Source: a virus
Strand: one strand, 5' to 3'
Virus record (IMG/VR): IMGVR_UViG_3300044712_000815
Span: 32,001-96,000 of that record
DNA: 64,000 bases
The notes beneath the pieces are model-generated. The model ran no database searches. It was not told the DNA's origin and saw nothing but the letters and a program-made list of their open reading frames with translations. The position numbers and the translations under genes were made by a program. Of this stretch, positions 47 through 32,242 are shown in pieces (position 1 is the first letter of the stretch; every line of letters starts with the position of its first letter).

Positions 47-70
47 TTAATTTAAAATATTTACTCATAA

Positions 71-274
71 AGAATACATACTGCAAATCATAAACTAAAT
101 ATGATAAACAGTGACTATGATGATGGTAGTGTTTTGAAACTTTTTTAGTTTTTCACTAAGTTACATCATCAATTAAAACCTATCCCAAGGGGATATGGAG
201 AAGGTCTTAACTAAACAAAAAAATTAAAAAGAAAGTTTACCGTTCGGTTTTTGAGAAAAACCGATTGTATTCTG
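71..274 (+). ncRNA. ~200-nt multibranch structured RNA closed by a CUGCAA-bulge stem (copy 2)
   Basis: AGAATAC (71-77) pairs with GTATTCT (267-273); ata-CTGCAA follows the 5' arm; internal hairpins at 87-105, 118-171, 173-210, 212-239, 244-264; no ORF. Confidence 0.55.
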
Positions 275-293
275 TTGAGGATTTTGATTTTTA

Positions 294-363
294 GCTTAGA
301 TTAGGATGTTGGCTTGGAAGCAGCCATTCATTTAAAGAGTACGTAACAGTTCACTAGTCAAGC
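294..363 (+). ncRNA. Free-standing 23S rRNA GTPase-associated centre (L11-binding domain, H43-H44) mimic
   Basis: TAGGATGTTGGCTTGGAAGCAGCCATTCATTTAAAGAGTACGTAACAGTTCACTAG matches 23S nt ~1051-1108 (E. coli numbering); closed by its own stem GCTT(A)GATTAG/CTAGTCAAGC; flanks are not rRNA. Confidence 0.85.
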
Positions 364-460: not shown

Positions 461-494
461 AGATTACTAACAGCAAAAATAAAAATGTAATCTG
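461..494 (+). promoter_or_regulatory. CAGCAA-bulge stem motif, copy 3, in the 5' leader of the TROVE-like gene
   Basis: AGATTAC-taa-CAGCAA...GTAATCTG; compensatory change relative to AGAATAC/GTATTCT; just upstream of an AGGAGG SD (506-511). Confidence 0.6.
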
Positions 495-515: not shown

Positions 516-1910
516 ATGAACTCAAATGCAAAATTAGTTAATGTAACTAGACAAAAAGACAGTTATACCAAAAATGGTATGGTAACAAATTCAACTTCGT
601 TGAATTCAAATGTGGATATGTTTTTCTTAGCGGGTGCTTCGAGAAATATCTCAGAAAAAGATATTGAATTTCTTTTTCAAAAATCAATAGTGGAAAACCC
701 TTTAGTGGCACTAAAACTTATGTTTTGGGCAAGAGACCCAAGAGGTGGTGCGGGTGAAAGAAGATTTTTCAGGATTTGTTCTAAATTCTTGAATAAGAAC
801 TATTTATCATATCTTGAAAAAAATATCAATTTAATACCTGAATATGGTCGTTGGGATGATATATTTGAACTTGATAGTGATGTTATATTACCATTAATCA
901 AAGATGGTTTAGATAAAGAAAATGGTTTGCTTGCAAAATGGTTACCACGTCAAGGAGAATTTGCGAATAAAGTTCGTAAATTTATGAAACTTAGTCCAAA
1001 GGATTATCGTAAACTTATTGTTGGTTTGTCAAATACAATCGAACAAAAAATGTGTGCAAAAGAATGGGATGCGATCACATATAAATCAGTGCCATCATGC
1101 GCACTGAATAAATATAGAAAGGCATTCTATAAAAATGATGCAAATCGTTTTACAGAATATATTTCATTGGTTAATGAAGGTAAAGAAGAAATTAAAGCAG
1201 GTGTTTTATTTCCACATCAATTATATCAAGCATATAAAAAAGGTGAAGATAAAAATGCTGTAGAAGCACAATGGAAAAATTTACCAGATTTTATGGTTGA
1301 TTCAGAAGAAAGAATTATACCAGTATGTGATGTGTCAGGTTCTATGACTAGTAATAATGGTCTTCCAATGTCAGTATCAGTGTCATTGGGTTTATATATT
1401 TCAGAAAGAAATAGAAGTATATTTAAAGATGCATTTATAACATTTTCAGCATCACCAAAAATGCAATATTTAAAAGGTTCTTTTTATGAAAGAATAAGAC
1501 AATTGGAAACTGCTGAATGGGGTATGAATACTAATTTGGAAGCTGTATATAGTTTAATATTAACTAAAGCTATTCAAAATAGATTAACCGAAGATGATAT
1601 GCCAACAAAAATTCTTATAATTTCGGATATGGAATTTGATAGTTGCGCTCAAAATAATTCAGATTCTGCATTTTCGATGATAAATAGAATGTATTCTGAT
1701 GCTGGCTATAAAATGCCACAGATCGTTTTTTGGAATGTAAATGGTAGATTGGGTAATGTTCCAACAAATGCACAAACAAAAAATGTTGGTTTGGTTTCAG
1801 GATTCAGTCCAGCAATATTGAAATCAATATTACAAGGTAGTATTGATACACCAGAAAGCTTAATGTTGCGAACAATAAATAGTGAAAGGTACGAACCTAT
1901 TACAATATAA
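516..1910 (+). CDS. DUF2828-family TROVE/Ro60-like protein with C-terminal vWA domain
   Basis: RDPRGGAGER, YGRWDD, AKWLPR motifs; vWA MIDAS DVSGSM...ISDMEFD; IVFWNV; SGFSP. Confidence 0.8.
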   Translation: MNSNAKLVNVTRQKDSYTKNGMVTNSTSLNSNVDMFFLAGASRNISEKDIEFLFQKSIVENPLVALKLMFWARDPRGGAGERRFFRICSKFLNKNYLSYLEKNINLIPEYGRWDDIFELDSDVILPLIKDGLDKENGLLAKWLPRQGEFANKVRKFMKLSPKDYRKLIVGLSNTIEQKMCAKEWDAITYKSVPSCALNKYRKAFYKNDANRFTEYISLVNEGKEEIKAGVLFPHQLYQAYKKGEDKNAVEAQWKNLPDFMVDSEERIIPVCDVSGSMTSNNGLPMSVSVSLGLYISERNRSIFKDAFITFSASPKMQYLKGSFYERIRQLETAEWGMNTNLEAVYSLILTKAIQNRLTEDDMPTKILIISDMEFDSCAQNNSDSAFSMINRMYSDAGYKMPQIVFWNVNGRLGNVPTNAQTKNVGLVSGFSPAILKSILQGSIDTPESLMLRTINSERYEPITI

Positions 1911-1915
1911 AAATG

Positions 1916-1944
1916 AAAAAGAGGATGTTAATCCTCTTTTTTTT
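1916..1944. terminator. Intrinsic terminator (bidirectional-type)
   Basis: AAAAAGAGGA-tgttaa-TCCTCTTTTT plus T tract. Confidence 0.75.
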
Positions 1945-2006
1945 AATATATCGTAAAATAATAAAAATGAAAAATTATATGGCGGTTTAGATTTAGAAGA
2001 ATAAAT

Positions 2007-2037
2007 TTTGTAATTATTAAAAATATATGTATCTTTG
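2007..2037 (+). promoter_or_regulatory. Bacteroidota primary-sigma promoter (-33 TTTG / -7 TAnnTTTG)
   Basis: TTTG (2007-2010), 19-nt spacer, TATCTTTG (2030-2037), upstream of prs. Confidence 0.65.
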
Positions 2038-2060
2038 CATTCTAATTTAAATCAACAAAT

Positions 2061-3080
2061 ATGGCAGTTAAAATTTTTTCAACTTCAAAATCAAAATATT
2101 TGGGTCAACATATTGCTAAGTCATACGGGGTTGACATAAGTAGTAGTGAGTTTAAAATCTTTTCGGATGGTGAATTTTGTCCACGTTTAGATGAAAGTGT
2201 TAGGGGTGATAAGGTGTTTATAGTAGCATCCCTATATTCATCTTATCATGAAGCTGAAGAAGTGATAAGAATGATACCAGAAGAAAAACAAAAAGAAGCG
2301 AAAGCGATATTAAAAACACTTATTTCTTCATCATCTACTGTATTTGAATTACTACAAATGATTGATGCCGCAAAAAGGGCATCAGCGAAAGATATAGTTG
2401 CTGTTATTCCATATTTTGGTTGGGCTAGACAAGATCGTAAAGACAAACCACGTGTACCAATTACTGCTAAGTTGTTAGCAAATATGATAACTGATGCTGG
2501 TGCAACCCGGCTAATTACTATGGACCTTCATGCTGATCAAATACAAGGTTTTTTTGATATTCCTGTTGATGCATTAAAAAGTTCTTATGTATTTGTTCCA
2601 TATATTCAATCATTGAATCTTAAAAACTTGGTTATTGGATCACCTGATGAAGGTGGTGGAAAAAGGGCAAAAAAATATGCTGAACGACTTGATACAAGAT
2701 TCATTTTGATGAATAAAGAAAGAAAAGAAGCAAATATTATCAAAGAAATGGAACTTATCGGTGATGTGAATGGATGCGATGTTGTTTTTATTGATGATAT
2801 TATTGATACTGCGGGGACGATAACCACTGCTGCTGATATATTGATGGATAAAAAAGGTGCAAAAAGTGTTAGGGCTTGTATTGCACATCCTGTCTTATCT
2901 GGTCCTGCTTATGAACGTATTGAAAAATCAAAAATTACCGAAATTATAGTTACTGATACTATCCCACTAAATTCTTATATCAAATCGGATAAAATACGAG
3001 TATTATCTATTGCTGATTTATTTTCACGTGCAATTATGCGAATGAATACAAATGAATCAATATCTAATCTATATGAATAA
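2061..3080 (+). CDS. prs: Ribose-phosphate pyrophosphokinase
   Basis: FSDGE, PYFGWARQDRK, DLHADQIQGFF, SPDEGG, DDIIDTAGT motifs. Confidence 0.95.
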   Translation: MAVKIFSTSKSKYLGQHIAKSYGVDISSSEFKIFSDGEFCPRLDESVRGDKVFIVASLYSSYHEAEEVIRMIPEEKQKEAKAILKTLISSSSTVFELLQMIDAAKRASAKDIVAVIPYFGWARQDRKDKPRVPITAKLLANMITDAGATRLITMDLHADQIQGFFDIPVDALKSSYVFVPYIQSLNLKNLVIGSPDEGGGKRAKKYAERLDTRFILMNKERKEANIIKEMELIGDVNGCDVVFIDDIIDTAGTITTAADILMDKKGAKSVRACIAHPVLSGPAYERIEKSKITEIIVTDTIPLNSYIKSDKIRVLSIADLFSRAIMRMNTNESISNLYE

Positions 3081-3441
3081 ATATAGTTATTCGAAAATAA
3101 TTAATGTGTTTTTTTTATTATTTGTTGGTATTTTTTATTCTTGTAATCAAAATGATAAGATAATTACGAGCGAAAAAATCATTACTGATGTGTACATAAC
3201 AGATGTATTTAAAGCAAAATATTCTAAAATTCAAGGATATATCTATTATAATAATATCAAACTAGAAATAGACAATGGTAATTCAGGATATTATTACAAA
3301 AATTATAGTATAAAAGCTGGTCAAAAAATTAAACGCTCGGTTATAGTATATCAAAGATATTATTTTACAACTGACCCATATAAGAATGATATTATATTGT
3401 CAACATCGGATATTGATTTTTCAGATTTTGTTATACAGTAA
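3073..3441 (+). CDS. Putative lipoprotein
   Basis: Hydrophobic N-terminus ending FYSC; start at 3073 overlaps the prs stop. Confidence 0.55.
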   Translation: MNKYSYSKIINVFFLLFVGIFYSCNQNDKIITSEKIITDVYITDVFKAKYSKIQGYIYYNNIKLEIDNGNSGYYYKNYSIKAGQKIKRSVIVYQRYYFTTDPYKNDIILSTSDIDFSDFVIQ

Positions 3442-3463
3442 AATAGTAAATAATTAACTACTT

Positions 3464-3497
3464 AAAAAGGCATATTGGAAACAATATGCCTTTTTTT
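3464..3497. terminator. Intrinsic terminator
   Basis: AAAAAGGCATATTG-gaaa-CAATATGCCTTTTT. Confidence 0.8.
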
Positions 3498-3546
3498 ATT
3501 AAACAAATTAAAAAAAACCAACTAAAAAAGTAAAATAAGATAAAAC

Positions 3547-3900
3547 ATGAAAACAAAAACATTTATTAGTAAACAAGAAATAAATACTACCGCTTTGGTA
3601 GAAGTCAAAATAACATTTAATGATATTGTAGATATTATATCAAGTTGTGATTATATTGAAAAATCTGAAATTAGAAATATTATTGGTAATGATTATGATG
3701 ATTTAGATTTTGATGAAGTTTATTCAATAGTTAATAATTTTAATTTTTCTAAACATGAATTGGAAGAAATGAAAAATATTATTTATGGTGAAGTTGATAA
3801 ATCATTATACGATGATTTAAAAAATAAAGTTATGAAAGTTGCTTTAGAAAAATATGATCTTGATGAATTGCAAAGGAGATTGGATATAAAATATTATTAA
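3547..3900 (+). CDS. Hypothetical protein
   Basis: ORF with A-rich leader after a promoter-like site. Confidence 0.6.
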   Translation: MKTKTFISKQEINTTALVEVKITFNDIVDIISSCDYIEKSEIRNIIGNDYDDLDFDEVYSIVNNFNFSKHELEEMKNIIYGEVDKSLYDDLKNKVMKVALEKYDLDELQRRLDIKYY

Positions 3901-3912
3901 AAATAAAAACGT

Positions 3913-4128
3913 ATGAAATTAGTTGACAAAATTAAAATGCTATTTGGGTACACTTATGTAGTGAATTTAAATACGTGGGAAATACACAATTTGAAAAATA
4001 CACACGAAAATTGTAATATCGAATTAATGACCCATAAAAAAATTATAACAAAAAACCAATTACACATATATTTAGAAGATGGTTATAATGGTTGTAGATG
4101 GTGTTTAAAAGAATATAATAAAGAATAA
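3913..4128 (+). CDS. Small Cys/His (Zn-binding-like) protein
   Basis: H...C and GCRWC motifs. Confidence 0.55.
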   Translation: MKLVDKIKMLFGYTYVVNLNTWEIHNLKNTHENCNIELMTHKKIITKNQLHIYLEDGYNGCRWCLKEYNKE

Positions 4129-4151
4129 AGAATAAAAAATAAATAAATATT

Positions 4152-4610
4152 ATGGATGAATGTCAAAGAGAAATAGCAACAGTATTAAATAGATACTGTA
4201 AAGAAAATGATAGTAATACACCAGATTTTATATTAGCTACATATTTGATGGATTGTTTAAACGCATTTAATAGTGCTGTAAGTTCAAGAGAAAAATGGTA
4301 CAATATCGAATCAAAACCAGGGAAAGGTACAAAAATAAATAATAAATTGGAAGATGAAATTGTAGAAGAAAATGGTGGTGCATTTATTAATTCAAATTTA
4401 GTTGAAACTACAAAATTGGTTACAGTATTTGAAATACATGATAAAAAGGAAGTTAATATATTTGAAGAAGATGAAATTGTTGATGAAGCCAAAGTGGATA
4501 TTGTAGAAAAAAAACAAATTAATGTTTTCGATGTAGATGAAGAAATTTCAGAAGAAACTAAAAACATTGAAACAAAAAACGAAGATGTTAATGATTTTTG
4601 GAATTCATAA
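4152..4610 (+). CDS. Hypothetical phage protein with acidic tail
   Basis: ENDSNTPDFILATYL N-terminal motif; repeated acidic segments. Confidence 0.6.
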   Translation: MDECQREIATVLNRYCKENDSNTPDFILATYLMDCLNAFNSAVSSREKWYNIESKPGKGTKINNKLEDEIVEENGGAFINSNLVETTKLVTVFEIHDKKEVNIFEEDEIVDEAKVDIVEKKQINVFDVDEEISEETKNIETKNEDVNDFWNS

Positions 4611-4661
4611 AATAAATTAAATAGGAACAATAGATTTTTATATATACATAAAAAAGTATAT

Positions 4662-5996
4662 ATGAAAAATAAAGTTATATGTGAAGTTTGTGGAAAAGAA
4701 GAAATGGTTTTTCCGTGTAGATCAAAAAACTATAAAACTTGTTCAAAAAAGTGTCTTGGTGAATACAATAAAGGAAAACTAAATTCTGTTTGTTGTGTAT
4801 GTGAAAAAGAATTTCACATTAAACCATATAGGACAAATAGAATAACAAATAAATTTGGAATAACGTGTTCTAAAAAATGTTCAAATAAATTAAAAGAAAA
4901 AATGTATATGGGAAGAGAAAATCCAAATACTAAGTATAAAAACTTAGATGATGACTTCTTTAAAGAAGTAAAAACTGAAGATAAAGCATATTTATTGGGA
5001 TGGATCGCTAGTGATGGCTCAATTAATCATAATAGTATACAAATCGCTATTAACAAAAAAGATTTATTATGTTTAGAAATATTGAGGGATATAATATGCA
5101 TAGATTTACCAATTAGTAATAAATCTACTGATTTAAAAATGTTAACTATATCATCAACAACCATTTCAAATGATGTGTGTAAATTATTAAATATTTTACC
5201 CGAAAAAAAATCAGATATCGTTTGTTTTCCAGATTTAGAAAATGATGATTTAAAATGGGCTTTTTTAAGGGGTTTTTTTGATGGTGATGGATCAATTCAT
5301 AATATAACAGAAACACATTATACACCGAGTTGTACTATAACATCCACATCTATAAATATGCGTAATTCTATTATGGAATTTTGTAAAATTCCTTGTAATG
5401 AATATGGTATAAATTTAAGTTGGTGTGGAAACAACGCATTGGATTTTTTAAATAAAATATATAAAAATTCTAAATTTAGGTTGGCTAGAAAATATGAATT
5501 ATATTTAGATATTTCAACATGGGTTCCATCTGTTTCGTATAGTAGATATTATAAGAATGAACATTGTAAATGGGCAAAAACAAGAAAAGATGCTGTTTCA
5601 CCATCTAAAGAAAGGGCATCGGATTCAGGATATGATTTAGTTCTTTTGGAAAAAATAAAAACTGTTGGAAAAGTTGAATTTTATGATACTGGAATAAAAG
5701 TTAAACCAAATTTTGGTTATTATTTTCAAATTGTGCCAAGAAGTTCAATTAGTAAAACTGGATATATGCTTGCAAATTCAGTAGGAATAATAGATAGAAC
5801 ATATTTAGGTAATATTATTGTTGCACTAATCAAAATTGATGAAACTGCACCAGATTTAGTTTTACCATTACGAATGGTACAAATGATTCCAACACCTATT
5901 GTACATTTTGAACTTGAAGAAGTAGAAAGTTTTGATGTAAACGAAACTGAACGTGGTGAAGGTGGATTTGGATCAACCAATAAAAAAGAAAAATAA
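4662..5996 (+). CDS. dut: Zn-finger + double LAGLIDADG endonuclease fused to dUTPase
   Basis: CxxC/CSKKC fingers; LLGWIASDG and FLRGFFDGDG; dUTPase motifs SGYDL, PRSSISK, GIIDRTYLG, RGEGGFGST. Confidence 0.85.
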   Translation: MKNKVICEVCGKEEMVFPCRSKNYKTCSKKCLGEYNKGKLNSVCCVCEKEFHIKPYRTNRITNKFGITCSKKCSNKLKEKMYMGRENPNTKYKNLDDDFFKEVKTEDKAYLLGWIASDGSINHNSIQIAINKKDLLCLEILRDIICIDLPISNKSTDLKMLTISSTTISNDVCKLLNILPEKKSDIVCFPDLENDDLKWAFLRGFFDGDGSIHNITETHYTPSCTITSTSINMRNSIMEFCKIPCNEYGINLSWCGNNALDFLNKIYKNSKFRLARKYELYLDISTWVPSVSYSRYYKNEHCKWAKTRKDAVSPSKERASDSGYDLVLLEKIKTVGKVEFYDTGIKVKPNFGYYFQIVPRSSISKTGYMLANSVGIIDRTYLGNIIVALIKIDETAPDLVLPLRMVQMIPTPIVHFELEEVESFDVNETERGEGGFGSTNKKEK

Positions 5997-11417: not shown

Positions 11418-11779
11418 GGGGATGACTGGTTTAGACAGTTTTGTGAAATATGGTTATCAGCAGGTATCGCATCATCTAATAAGCGATTAATAAATTATGG
11501 GTAAAAACAATAAATGGCAAAGCACATACGCATATCGCTACTTCAAGATCAACTTATGCAGTTACTAGAACTGCAGTTGAAGCCGAAGTTTCTGTAGCCT
11601 AATCAGAAAATCTAGAAATCTTTTAGTAAACTATTTTGGGATCGCCAAAAATGTTTAGTGGATTTAATATTTACCATCAAAAAAATTATTTATTTTGTTT
11701 CAATTAGAAAATTGAAAATAAACCTGTAGAAGATGCTAAAAGACATTATTGGACCCGAGTTCGAATCTCGGCATCTCCA
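11418..11779 (+). ncRNA. ssrA: tmRNA with 28-codon tag (11516-11602)
   Basis: Acceptor stem GGGGATG/CATCTCC-A with G3.U70; T-arm CCGAG-TTCGAAT-CTCGG; ATAAAT-GGC resume context; CCA not encoded; terminator at ~11801-11832. Confidence 0.9.
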
Positions 11780-11836
11780 CTAACTTAGCCATAAAAGCAT
11801 AAAAAGCATAATTAATTATATTATGCTTTTTTAGTT

Positions 11837-30484: not shown

Positions 30485-32242
30485 ATGGCAACATATAATC
30501 GCTATAATCAACCAAATTCAATGTATGAATTTGGAAAAGGTAATACTGGAAAAAGTTTTGGTAACAAATTATTAAGAAGGTTAAGTAATTTTGGTATGGA
30601 TGATCAGGAAATGGTAGTTAAAAATAGTCAAGCTGTTGGTGCATTTCAAGATACTAGTAACTTACTATATGAACCAGGCACAAATATGTATGATTTATTT
30701 ACTAAAAAAGTAATATCTAAAATATTAGAAAAAAAATCAATTGCATATTTAGATCGAAGATATCTAGATAAAAGAAAAATTTTACATCAATATGCAATTA
30801 AAGAAGAAATTAAAGATTATATAACAAGGATATCAGAAGAAGCTATTAACTATGATGATGATAATTATTTTTGTAGTGTTACAGATTTACCTGAAATGTA
30901 TGATCAATCAATTAGGATAAAATATCAAGAAAATTTTAAGAAAATTTATAATTCTTTCGGTTTTAATGATGGTCTTACTGCATGGAATTATATGAAAACA
31001 TTTTTGATAGATGGGTTTTTGGCATATGAACTTGTTTATGATGATGATCAAAAAAATATTATTGATCTTAATTTATTGGATCCATTAACATTAATTGTTG
31101 CTGCTGAACCGGGAACTGGAACTGTAGTTTGGATTCAAAATCCAGATTTACCACAATTAAGAAGGGTTTTATTAGATGCAAATATTGTTTACATATCATA
31201 TTCGAATAATTTGGACTATGATGAAACAAGTTATGTTGAAGGTCTTATTAAACCATATAACCAACTTAAATTATTAGAATTTACAAAGTTGATGTATAAT
31301 TTAAATCAAGCATCAATTTATAAAAAATTTATTATACCTGTTGATGGATTAACACGACAACAAGGTGAACAACAAATCACACAATTGATGAGTGAATATC
31401 ATGAAGACATTGAATGGGATGATAGAACAGGGATACCATATATTAATGGTTCAACAAAAATCCCACATTCAAAAGATATTTGGTTGCCAAAATCAGATAA
31501 TGGTGGATCACCAGAAGTTGAAATTATTCAGCCACAACAAGCTGAGTTAAATGAAGATGTAACATTACAATGGTTTTATAAAGGATTAAAACGTGCATCA
31601 AAAATGCCTTTTTCTAGATTGGATGAAGATCAAGGTGGTGGAAATTTTTATGATGATACTGCATCAATTACTATGGATGAAATCAGATTCAAAACTTTTG
31701 TTAATCGTTTAAGAACATTATTTAAAGAAGTTTTAGTTAAACCGTTGAAAATTCAAATGGTTTTAGATTTTCCTGAATTAGAAAAAGATAAATTATTTGA
31801 TAGTTATATTAAAATTAAATTTAATTCAAATGATTTATTCGAAGAATGGAAATATTTAAATAATTTATCAAAAAGAGCTGAAATAGCATCAACATTATCT
31901 TCTAATTTAGTGGATGCTGATGGAAAACCATACTTGAGTATTGAATTTTTAATCAGAAAAATAATGAAATTTACTGATGAAGATATTGAATTAAATAACA
32001 AATATAAAACAATGAGTGGTGCGGCATCTCCGGGTGCAGGTGCAGGTGGCGGTTTTGGTGGTGGCGGTGGCGGCCTAGGTGGAGCACAAATGGGTGGTGA
32101 AATGCCTGGTGGAGCACAAATGGGTGGTGAAATGCCTGGTGGAGCACAAATGGGTGGTGGAGCACAAGGTGGTGGAGCACAAGGTGGTGGAGCACAAGGT
32201 GGTGGAGCACAAGGTGGTGGAGCACAAGGTGCTGAATTTTAA
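30485..32242 (+). CDS. Portal protein (T4 gp20-like) with Gly-rich tail
   Basis: FLIDG, LDP, SYVEGLIKPYNQLKLLE, DIWLP, ASKMPFSRL, ITMDEIRFKTFVNRLR. Confidence 0.92.
   Translation: MATYNRYNQPNSMYEFGKGNTGKSFGNKLLRRLSNFGMDDQEMVVKNSQAVGAFQDTSNLLYEPGTNMYDLFTKKVISKILEKKSIAYLDRRYLDKRKILHQYAIKEEIKDYITRISEEAINYDDDNYFCSVTDLPEMYDQSIRIKYQENFKKIYNSFGFNDGLTAWNYMKTFLIDGFLAYELVYDDDQKNIIDLNLLDPLTLIVAAEPGTGTVVWIQNPDLPQLRRVLLDANIVYISYSNNLDYDETSYVEGLIKPYNQLKLLEFTKLMYNLNQASIYKKFIIPVDGLTRQQGEQQITQLMSEYHEDIEWDDRTGIPYINGSTKIPHSKDIWLPKSDNGGSPEVEIIQPQQAELNEDVTLQWFYKGLKRASKMPFSRLDEDQGGGNFYDDTASITMDEIRFKTFVNRLRTLFKEVLVKPLKIQMVLDFPELEKDKLFDSYIKIKFNSNDLFEEWKYLNNLSKRAEIASTLSSNLVDADGKPYLSIEFLIRKIMKFTDEDIELNNKYKTMSGAASPGAGAGGGFGGGGGGLGGAQMGGEMPGGAQMGGEMPGGAQMGGGAQGGGAQGGGAQGGGAQGGGAQGAEF
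32078..32230 (+). repeat. Coding tandem repeats in portal tail (30-bp GGAQMGGEMP x2; 15-bp GGGAQ x5)
   Basis: Direct inspection. Confidence 0.9.

Follow-up and report, generated by a model that had tools for sequence, protein, structure and literature searches.

A stand-alone copy of the uL11-binding domain of 23S rRNA in a large uncultured phage, with a tentative role as a trans-acting decoy

An uncultured phage of very large size, whose host is of Bacteroidota type, encodes a stand-alone copy of the uL11-binding domain of 23S rRNA, made up of the top of H42 together with H43 and H44. The copy lies at positions 294–363 (+) of the window, the 64,000-nucleotide stretch of DNA analysed here, which corresponds to bases 32001–96000 of a 159,264-base IMG/VR virus record. 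The phage genome has a G+C content of about 24%, and CheckV places the completeness of the record at 22%, which suggests a genome of several hundred kb. Our best explanation, put forward tentatively, is that the element is a captured host-type GTPase-associated centre (GAC) whose fold has been under selection and which acts in trans as a decoy, with uL11 as its likeliest partner.

The match to rRNA spans positions 300–361 (+), where the Rfam model LSU_rRNA_bacteria scores 51.3 bits (gathering score 50, E 1.3e-14) over model positions 1092–1152 with a posterior probability of 1.00, and where none of the consensus helices contains a pair flagged as non-standard. Searches of both the window and the record recovered no other rRNA in the 64 kb or in the whole 159 kb, and by simple motif searches the GAC copy at 294–363 is the sole one in the record. 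The element and the features that follow it are:

294–363 (+): the whole self-closed GAC-like RNA domain, 70 nt, from folds and the Rfam match
300–361 (+): the stretch matching bacterial 23S rRNA (Rfam LSU_rRNA_bacteria), about 1051–1110 in E. coli numbering
306–331 (+): the equivalent of H43 (1057–1081) with the 1067 loop, identical to the 23S rRNA of at least 120 species
337–352 (+): the equivalent of H44 (1087–1102) with the 1095 loop, with A341–U350 in place of G1091–C1100
369–397 (+): an additional AT-rich hairpin, lying 3' of the domain and 5' of the terminator, read from the sequence and absent in the sister copy L261
405–450 (+): an intrinsic terminator, a 13-bp stem (AAATCCCAACTAT/ATAGTTGGGATTT) and then a T run, conserved in related phages

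The minimum-energy and centroid folds both contain a closing stem formed by 294–304 and 354–363 with A298 bulged, which lengthens the closing helix of the three-way junction (1051–1055/1104–1108) to 10 bp. The conserved 1065–1073 loop of H43 is retained as in Bacteroidota 23S rRNA, G316 standing at position 1067 and U328 being the extra U typical of Bacteroidota, and the GUAAYA loop of H44 (A1095) is exactly that of the host; the 1067 and 1095 loops are thus both intact. The arms of the terminator pair 405–417 with 431–443, and its T run extends to 450. The thermodynamic signal of the fold is modest (z −1.5 to −2.5), and a sigma-70-type scan before the window's copy gave nothing above chance and no recognisable promoter. 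The original prediction had described a 23S block of about 58 nt, bounded like the autonomously folding L11-binding domain (H43–H44), sealed by its own stem with one bulged A, followed by a terminator and accompanied by no other rRNA in the window. Each of these points holds, with the hairpin at 369–397 intervening before the terminator and the lack of other rRNA extending to the whole record.

The phage element agrees with the GAC domain of 23S rRNA in sequence, in secondary structure, in the two conserved loops and in the junction UUUAAAG, but it lies outside any 23S rRNA, alone on a phage, carries A1091–U1100 and is unable to sit in a ribosome. A closer parallel in form is the 58–60-nt laboratory fragment used in uL11 and thiostrepton studies, since in both of them the cut lies at the domain boundary and a foreign stem closes the domain again. 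The laboratory fragment comprises nt 1050–1109 with altered terminal pairs and U1061A, a change that stabilizes the GAC fold (PMC1802607). The C-terminal domain of uL11 binds the conserved 58-nt domain mainly on H43, at 1058–1065 and from 1075 onward (PMC1802607), and the H43 nucleotides named as this interface fall in the invariant part of the element.

The sequence of the element points to its source. An exact 29-mer that includes G1067 and the extra U after U1078 is present in 23S genes from at least 120 species; nearly all of these are Bacteroidota, chiefly Flavobacteriia, Sphingobacteriia, Chitinophagia and Bacteroidia, and the rest include some cyanobacteria. As changes specific to the mimic, both G1067 and the extra U can be rejected, since they represent the normal state of Bacteroidota 23S rRNA; the original prediction had noted this likeness for G1067. 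Over the 50-nt core from G1055 to C1104, the sole differences from Flavobacteriia-type 23S rRNA are G1091A and C1100U, which together make up a single base pair (A341 and U350 in the window). G and C occupy these positions in 120/120 Bacteroidota-type 23S genes fetched, whereas the A1091–U1100 variant was found in none of these true 23S genes and in none of 401 Flavobacteriales genomes, so that it can be rejected as a normal variant of 23S rRNA. The proposal that the pair is a compensatory double change is upheld: the A–U pair is specific to the element. From the secondary structure we estimate roughly that, if two changes were placed at random among about 50 positions, they would strike the same one of about 14 pairs in about 1% of cases. 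However, G-to-A and C-to-T are also the directions of change expected in a genome of 24% G+C.

Traces of host H42 are visible on both sides of the core. The 3' flank reads GTCAAGCAA against GTCGAGCGG in the host, with three G-to-A changes within GTCGAGCGG just beyond the domain. The 5' flank, GCTTAGA(-CAG)TTAGG, can be aligned with GCTTAGACAGCTAGG of Polaribacter- and Xanthomarina-type 23S rRNA, and the missing CAG turns an internal loop of the host into a continuous stem. We read this as the probable capture of about nt 1041–1115 of a Flavobacteriia-like 23S rRNA, followed by trimming. We likewise read the flanks as having drifted from G to A, as expected of an AT-rich genome, while the core changed at the compensatory pair only. 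Because closeness to host 23S rRNA means that the capture may be recent, the argument from conservation is weakened.

Sister copies were sought in viral and metagenome contigs, and three further contexts with the A1091–U1100 core were found. All four isolated compact copies (the window, L261, L168 and L259) carry the A–U variant, and they have four different closing stems, every one of which pairs on folding. L261 is the same locus as the window and near-identical to it, with the lysozyme gene, the slot and the Ro60-like gene described below; its closing stem is re-registered, the hairpin at 369–397 is absent and G1071 has been lost, which may be decay or an assembly error. L168, the same as L260 from a second assembly, is a different phage contig in which the stem is GACAUUGAGG/CCUCAAUGUC and the core carries U1061A, C1064U and U1094C. 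In L259 the core is 100% identical to that of the window, whereas the 13-bp closing stem is entirely different (U1053–A1106 is flipped to A–U and A1051–U1108 is changed to C–G). A promoter-like TTTG-20 nt-TAATATTG (also TTGACA-17-TAATAT) stands 7 nt 5' of the L259 stem and a terminator follows directly 3', a compact gene layout; the locus is flanked by bacterial tsaD and by an integrated element encoding a rolling-circle Rep, a serine recombinase, an ABC exporter and a patatin.

These copies bear on whether the element is an accident. The original prediction had argued against a chance capture or an assembly chimera, and the chimera is now ruled out, since L261 is an independent metagenome contig of the same locus and L168/L260 is a sister recovered in two assemblies. 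A comparison of relatives had been proposed as a check: L261, L168 and L259 hold the core with new, paired stems, and the GAC motif is absent from the five closest-relative contigs (75–79% identical in the Ro60-like protein; contigs 5–21% complete). That the core stays invariant while the flanks change, and that the boundaries coincide with the domain edges in contexts independent of one another, argues for selection on the fold.

Isolated domains of this kind are not confined to the compact copies, and the existence of a wider, convergent family counts in favour of the explanation put forward here. Using a loose H43 pattern, isolated H43-like RNAs were found in at least 119 viral contigs other than the window's, none of which has more than 90 nt of similarity to real 23S or rRNA loci. 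Among 82 distinct sequences, the pair 1058–1080 is G–C in 36, U–A in 25, A–U in 18, C–G in 2 and G–U in 1, with no mismatches, and position 1061 is free (A in 26/82). The closing pairs 1051–1054/1105–1108 are paired in 33–38 of 38 sequences, as against 12–19 of 38 when the partner is slid by one. The block UUUGGCGUAAYAGCACAC occurs within 400 nt, past an insert of 84–360 nt, in 47 of 87 distinct family sequences; the same block pattern is found in 3/83 upstream control stretches. Many family members begin directly after a tRNA gene. The GAC-like RNAs have no constant protein neighbour, the genes beside them encoding homing endonucleases, RNase H, TerD and, in a few cases, Ro60-like proteins.

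The family and the window copy are both stand-alone forms of H43, the junction and the H44 loop, with their own closing helix and on mobile elements. The family differs in usually having the insert, which is structured and lies between U1090 and G1091, in having A at 1101, and in lacking the extra U. Conversely, the window copy has no insert, is host-like at the extra U, C1097 and U1101 (it reads AGTTCAC as in host 23S rRNA, not the family block with A1101) and retains traces of host H42. No tRNA gene is present in the 64-kb window; the nearest is 6.6 kb upstream in the record, where an array of 15 tRNA genes lies 6.6–12 kb from the element. The absence of the insert, the host-like sites and the H42 traces make an independent capture the more economical reading, and by its sequence the window copy looks like a separate, minimal capture from the host. 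A GenBank match in Paenibacillus phage Pd_22F (L344, MZ092003.1, locus 1273–4378) was rejected as an isolated element, being a full 23S plus 5S stretch, unannotated and beside a serine recombinase; in a phage record given as a complete genome, this rRNA is either host DNA or real cargo.

Rfam 15 holds no family for a free-standing GAC, the LSU model alone matching, and no description of a phage GAC, L11 or rRNA mimic was found in the literature searched. To our knowledge, no class of virus-encoded RNAs that copy a ribosomal functional centre and stand free of the ribosome has been described: the rRNA mimics that we know of are cis-acting ribosomal-protein leaders, and known phage translation mimics copy tRNA or tmRNA. 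We regard the GAC-like RNA as a new kind of mobile-element RNA, of which the window copy is the minimal, host-derived form, and the GAC-like phage family of at least 119 contigs is apparently undescribed. That the window copy seems to have arisen independently, out of host rRNA, is an argument for a free GAC being useful in its own right. At 70 nt and with the host's sequence, it mirrors the laboratory fragment and would be the simplest member for biochemistry.

In the favoured, decoy reading, a piece of a Flavobacteriia-like 23S rRNA (about nt 1041–1115) would have been captured, cut back to the part that folds autonomously and given its own sealing helix, and the domain would then have been kept by purifying selection on mobile elements of Bacteroidota-type hosts. 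The RNA would be expressed from a small-RNA slot of variable content, flanked by a lysozyme gene and a Ro60-like gene, with the intrinsic terminator behind it, and would fold like the ribosomal site and act in trans, off the ribosome. There it would bind a host protein that recognizes the GAC, most likely uL11, through the C-terminal domain that contacts H43. Such binding would withdraw uL11 from ribosomes or from their assembly and so blunt functions that depend on uL11, for instance the activation of RelA. Titration of uL11 or RelA and absorption of toxins had been put forward as possible activities in the original prediction. The transcription of the RNA, its binding partner and its physiological effect are what we infer from the sequence and its comparison. 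A host partner is probable, because no constant phage protein adjoins the GAC-like RNAs and the virus record contains no gene for uL11, bL12 or bS21. Against a decoy it can be said that a small RNA must compete with tens of thousands of ribosomes for uL11. If the RNA does bind uL11 or a factor that recognizes the GAC, it would give the phage a handle on GTPase recruitment, the stringent response and toxins directed at this site.

The main rival to the uL11 decoy, possible but on the unlikely side, is that the RNA serves as a sink: a toxin or a defence effector directed against the GAC (an ADP-ribosyltransferase, nuclease or glycosidase) would bind or modify it instead of ribosomes. Phage tRNAs are thought to offset tRNA-targeting defences, and the sink is likened to them; in the wider family the RNA often stands directly after a tRNA gene, and the record's own tRNA array lies nearby. 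The intact 1067 and 1095 loops would suit such a target, the accessory and patchy spread among close relatives is typical of counter-defence cargo, and a compact copy is also found on an integrated element. Yet we know of no anti-phage system that targets the GAC, none was found in the literature searched, and no cognate gene is linked to the GAC-like RNAs. A bacterial toxin that modifies H44 is documented, namely Tre23, which ADP-ribosylates nt 1095–1098 within a fragment spanning 1043–1123 (PMC8661411); it is, however, an interbacterial T6SS toxin and not a phage defence.

As for its surroundings, the element occupies a non-coding region of 690 nt, with a phage-lysozyme-type gene on one side and a 464-aa gene on the other. 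The features of this region and its downstream neighbour are:

62–280 (+): a conserved upstream non-coding domain, from RNAalifold on six relatives
266–285 (+): the conserved 5' border of the variable small-RNA slot (TGTATTCTGTTGAGGATTTT), from an alignment of relatives
462–494 (+): a hairpin GAUUAC-UAACAGCAA...-GUAAUC-UG in the leader of the Ro60-like gene, related to stems at −4 to 46 and 71 to 273
516–1910 (+): the gene for a 464-aa Ro60-fold protein (Pfam DUF2828 and DUF7788)

Six related phage loci have in common the upstream RNA domain, the border GTATTCTGTTGAGGATTT and the terminator. The contents of the slot between them differ: the window and L261 have the GAC there, and L001/L014, L002, L003 and L265 have small RNAs of four other types. 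BLAST against rRNA loci and sensitive Rfam scans revealed no likeness of these other RNAs to rRNA or to known families, and the idea that they are further rRNA or tRNA mimics was rejected, the matches being of a generic hairpin-plus-terminator kind only (Qrr 41 bits, NsiR1 30 bits). The differing contents, and the relatives' contigs that lack the GAC, mark the element out as accessory cargo, carried in a slot whose content varies. Direct repeats bracket the cassette, in that GTTGAGGATTTT at 273–285 in the 5' border nearly repeats GTTGGGATTTTT at 434–446 in the 3' arm of the terminator, both on the + strand; these repeats could reflect cassette exchange or an alternative anti-terminator pairing.

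A 12-bp helix, invariant and interrupted by an internal loop (64–67/276–279 and 71–78/266–273), closes the upstream domain, so that the border at 266–285 is also the 3' strand of a long invariant helix with 64–78; the inner hairpins show some compensatory changes. A stem-loop motif, GAWUAC-WWWCWGCAA...GUAWUC-UG, is found three times on the + strand, at −4 to 46 (record positions 31997–32046), 71–273 and 462–494, and two of the copies give weak matches to the Dictyostelium Class I RNA model. The hairpin at 462–494 shows a compensatory change in L265 (GAUUGC/GCAAUC). The domain at 62–280 is a candidate partner RNA of the Ro60-like protein, and the thrice-repeated stem-loop may be a binding site for it.

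The neighbouring protein is predicted to have the Ro60 fold, an identity settled by fold search and not by sequence similarity: sequence-only searches against the PDB gave no significant match. Its AF2 model (pLDDT 84, pTM 0.81) consists of a HEAT-repeat ring and a vWA domain with a MIDAS motif, its DxSxS aligns with TROVE chains, and Foldseek returned full-length matches to phiLo Ro60 (9kop, 9l5y), Deinococcus Rsr (2nvo) and Xenopus Ro60 (1yvp) at E values of 1e-7 to 1e-4 and TM scores of 0.4–0.6, phiLo Ro60 giving 1.4e-7. The description of the adjacent protein as Ro60-like in the original prediction is therefore well founded. A profile of the Ro60-like family also matches bS21 (8fmw_U) weakly (E 0.009) over residues 161–216 of the protein, probably by chance.

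In bacteria and phages, Y RNAs are encoded within 4 kb of Ro60 genes on the same strand (PMC4201824). In the Thermus phage phiLo, two Y-like RNAs lie directly upstream of the Ro60 gene and bind both Ro60 and the host PNPase (PMC12135203). The GAC element ends 153 nt 5' of the 516–1910 gene on the same strand, well inside the 4-kb distance that applies to Y RNAs. Like YrlA, Yrn1 and phiLo Yrl1/2, it is a small structured RNA upstream of a Ro60-fold gene on the same strand, and both the Y RNAs and the element are modular and mimic an RNA of the translation apparatus. They differ in that Y RNAs mimic tRNA and carry the motif GNCGAAN0-1G in a bulged terminal stem, whereas the element is an rRNA domain, in whose intergenic region this Ro60-binding motif was not seen on reading. 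Nor were YrlA, tRNA-like RNAs or Rfam families other than LSU found in the 690-nt region, the YrlA search having covered 150–520 of the window and the 521 nt upstream at E values up to 5–10.

It is conceivable, if unlikely, that the GAC serves as an exchangeable 3' module within a Y-RNA-like transcript partnering the Ro60-like protein, the upstream helix binding the protein and the GAC tethering it, with a host exonuclease, to uL11 or to another GAC-binding factor. The predicted fold of the neighbour, the Y RNAs that adjoin other Ro60 genes, the conserved domain with its invariant helix 5' of the slot and the related stem-loops, one of them in the leader of the Ro60-like gene, all favour this arrangement. 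In L171 (= L007) and L201, moreover, a GAC-like RNA begins about 64 nt 3' of a Ro60-like gene. In L007, a 385-kb phage contig, that RNA occupies 4434–4478 directly downstream of the gene and is followed by tRNAs, and a YrlA-like match (1758–1818, 41.9 bits, below the gathering score of 69) lies upstream of the gene. Against it, a GAC-like motif was found in 0/80 further Ro60-like loci (plus or minus 4 kb), by which a general coupling of GAC-like RNAs to Ro60-like genes is rejected. In the stretches examined, L259, L168 and most of the 119 family loci have no Ro60-like neighbour; the intergenic region yielded neither the motif nor a YrlA or tRNA-like match, and the relatives' slot contents look like generic small RNAs. 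The suggestion that the element is a ligand of the Ro60-like protein therefore keeps its local adjacency and fails as a rule, given the 80 other loci, L259 and L168, and a slot that holds unrelated RNAs; the Ro60 link is a local possibility, not a general function.

In a broader version, which we consider quite unlikely, mobile elements have captured the GAC more than once, and here it is an exchangeable effector module of a Y-RNA-like cassette that tethers the phage Ro60, along with a host exonuclease, to uL11 or to uL11-free ribosomes. The insert-bearing phage family would then represent one or more captures and the host-type minimal form a separate one. If the Y-RNA-like-cassette reading were true, the phage would possess programmable targeting of parts of the translation apparatus.

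A functionless element is similarly improbable. The core is only two substitutions from host 23S rRNA, the closest relatives lack the element, L261 has lost G1071 and the slot swaps its content freely, all of which would be expected if a fragment of host rRNA had been picked up recently and neutrally in a recombination-prone slot. However, in three independent contexts the element begins and ends at the limits of the folding domain, and each time a new stem pairs; the two core changes are compensatory and common to all four copies; the flanks decay and the core does not; and covariation maintains the same fold in a large, independent family.

The mRNA leaders of ribosomal proteins (L1, L10, L20 and S15) mimic rRNA sites and act in cis on their own operons. 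Like them, the element is an RNA outside the ribosome that imitates the rRNA site of a ribosomal protein, but the leaders resemble the site in key features only, whereas the element is a near-exact copy of a full domain, on a phage and unrelated to the rplK operon. That the GAC is itself a cis-acting leader, sensing a protein such as free uL11 and switching the terminator to control read-through into the Ro60-like gene, would fit the order of domain, terminator and gene and an alternative helix, read from the sequence, between the 5' border GUUGAGGAUUU and the 5' arm of the terminator AAAUCCCAAC, but is very improbable, since the downstream gene is 75–79% conserved in relatives with unrelated slot content and L259 has its own promoter-like site and terminator ahead of an unrelated gene that starts about 280 nt on.

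Several other features were observed in the window and in related contigs. In L014 and L015 (2170–3000), the Ro60-like gene is split by an ORF-bearing insertion of about 0.85 kb, which may be an intron or an intein with a homing endonuclease. Beside the Ro60-like gene of L011, three tRNA genes (4533–5137) are 113–118 nt long, and in the one for which the alignment is shown the anticodon loop is longer by about 43 nt; they are likely intron-bearing phage tRNAs. In L004, a 465-kb phage contig, a group I intron match (5110–5318, 51.5 bits) lies about 730 nt downstream of the Ro60-like gene. Within the window, 2061–3080 (+) encodes a phage ribose-phosphate pyrophosphokinase (PRPP synthetase) with all three Pfam domains, and 4662–5996 (+) is a 444-aa ORF with a dUTPase domain (residues 312–439) and a LAGLIDADG-like domain (198–232), which may be an intein or a fused homing endonuclease. 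A phage-encoded tmRNA is present at 11418–11782 (+) (Rfam 80.3 bits, E 1.5e-29), for which ARAGORN gives the tag peptide GKAHTHIATSRSTYAVTRTAVEAEVSVA.
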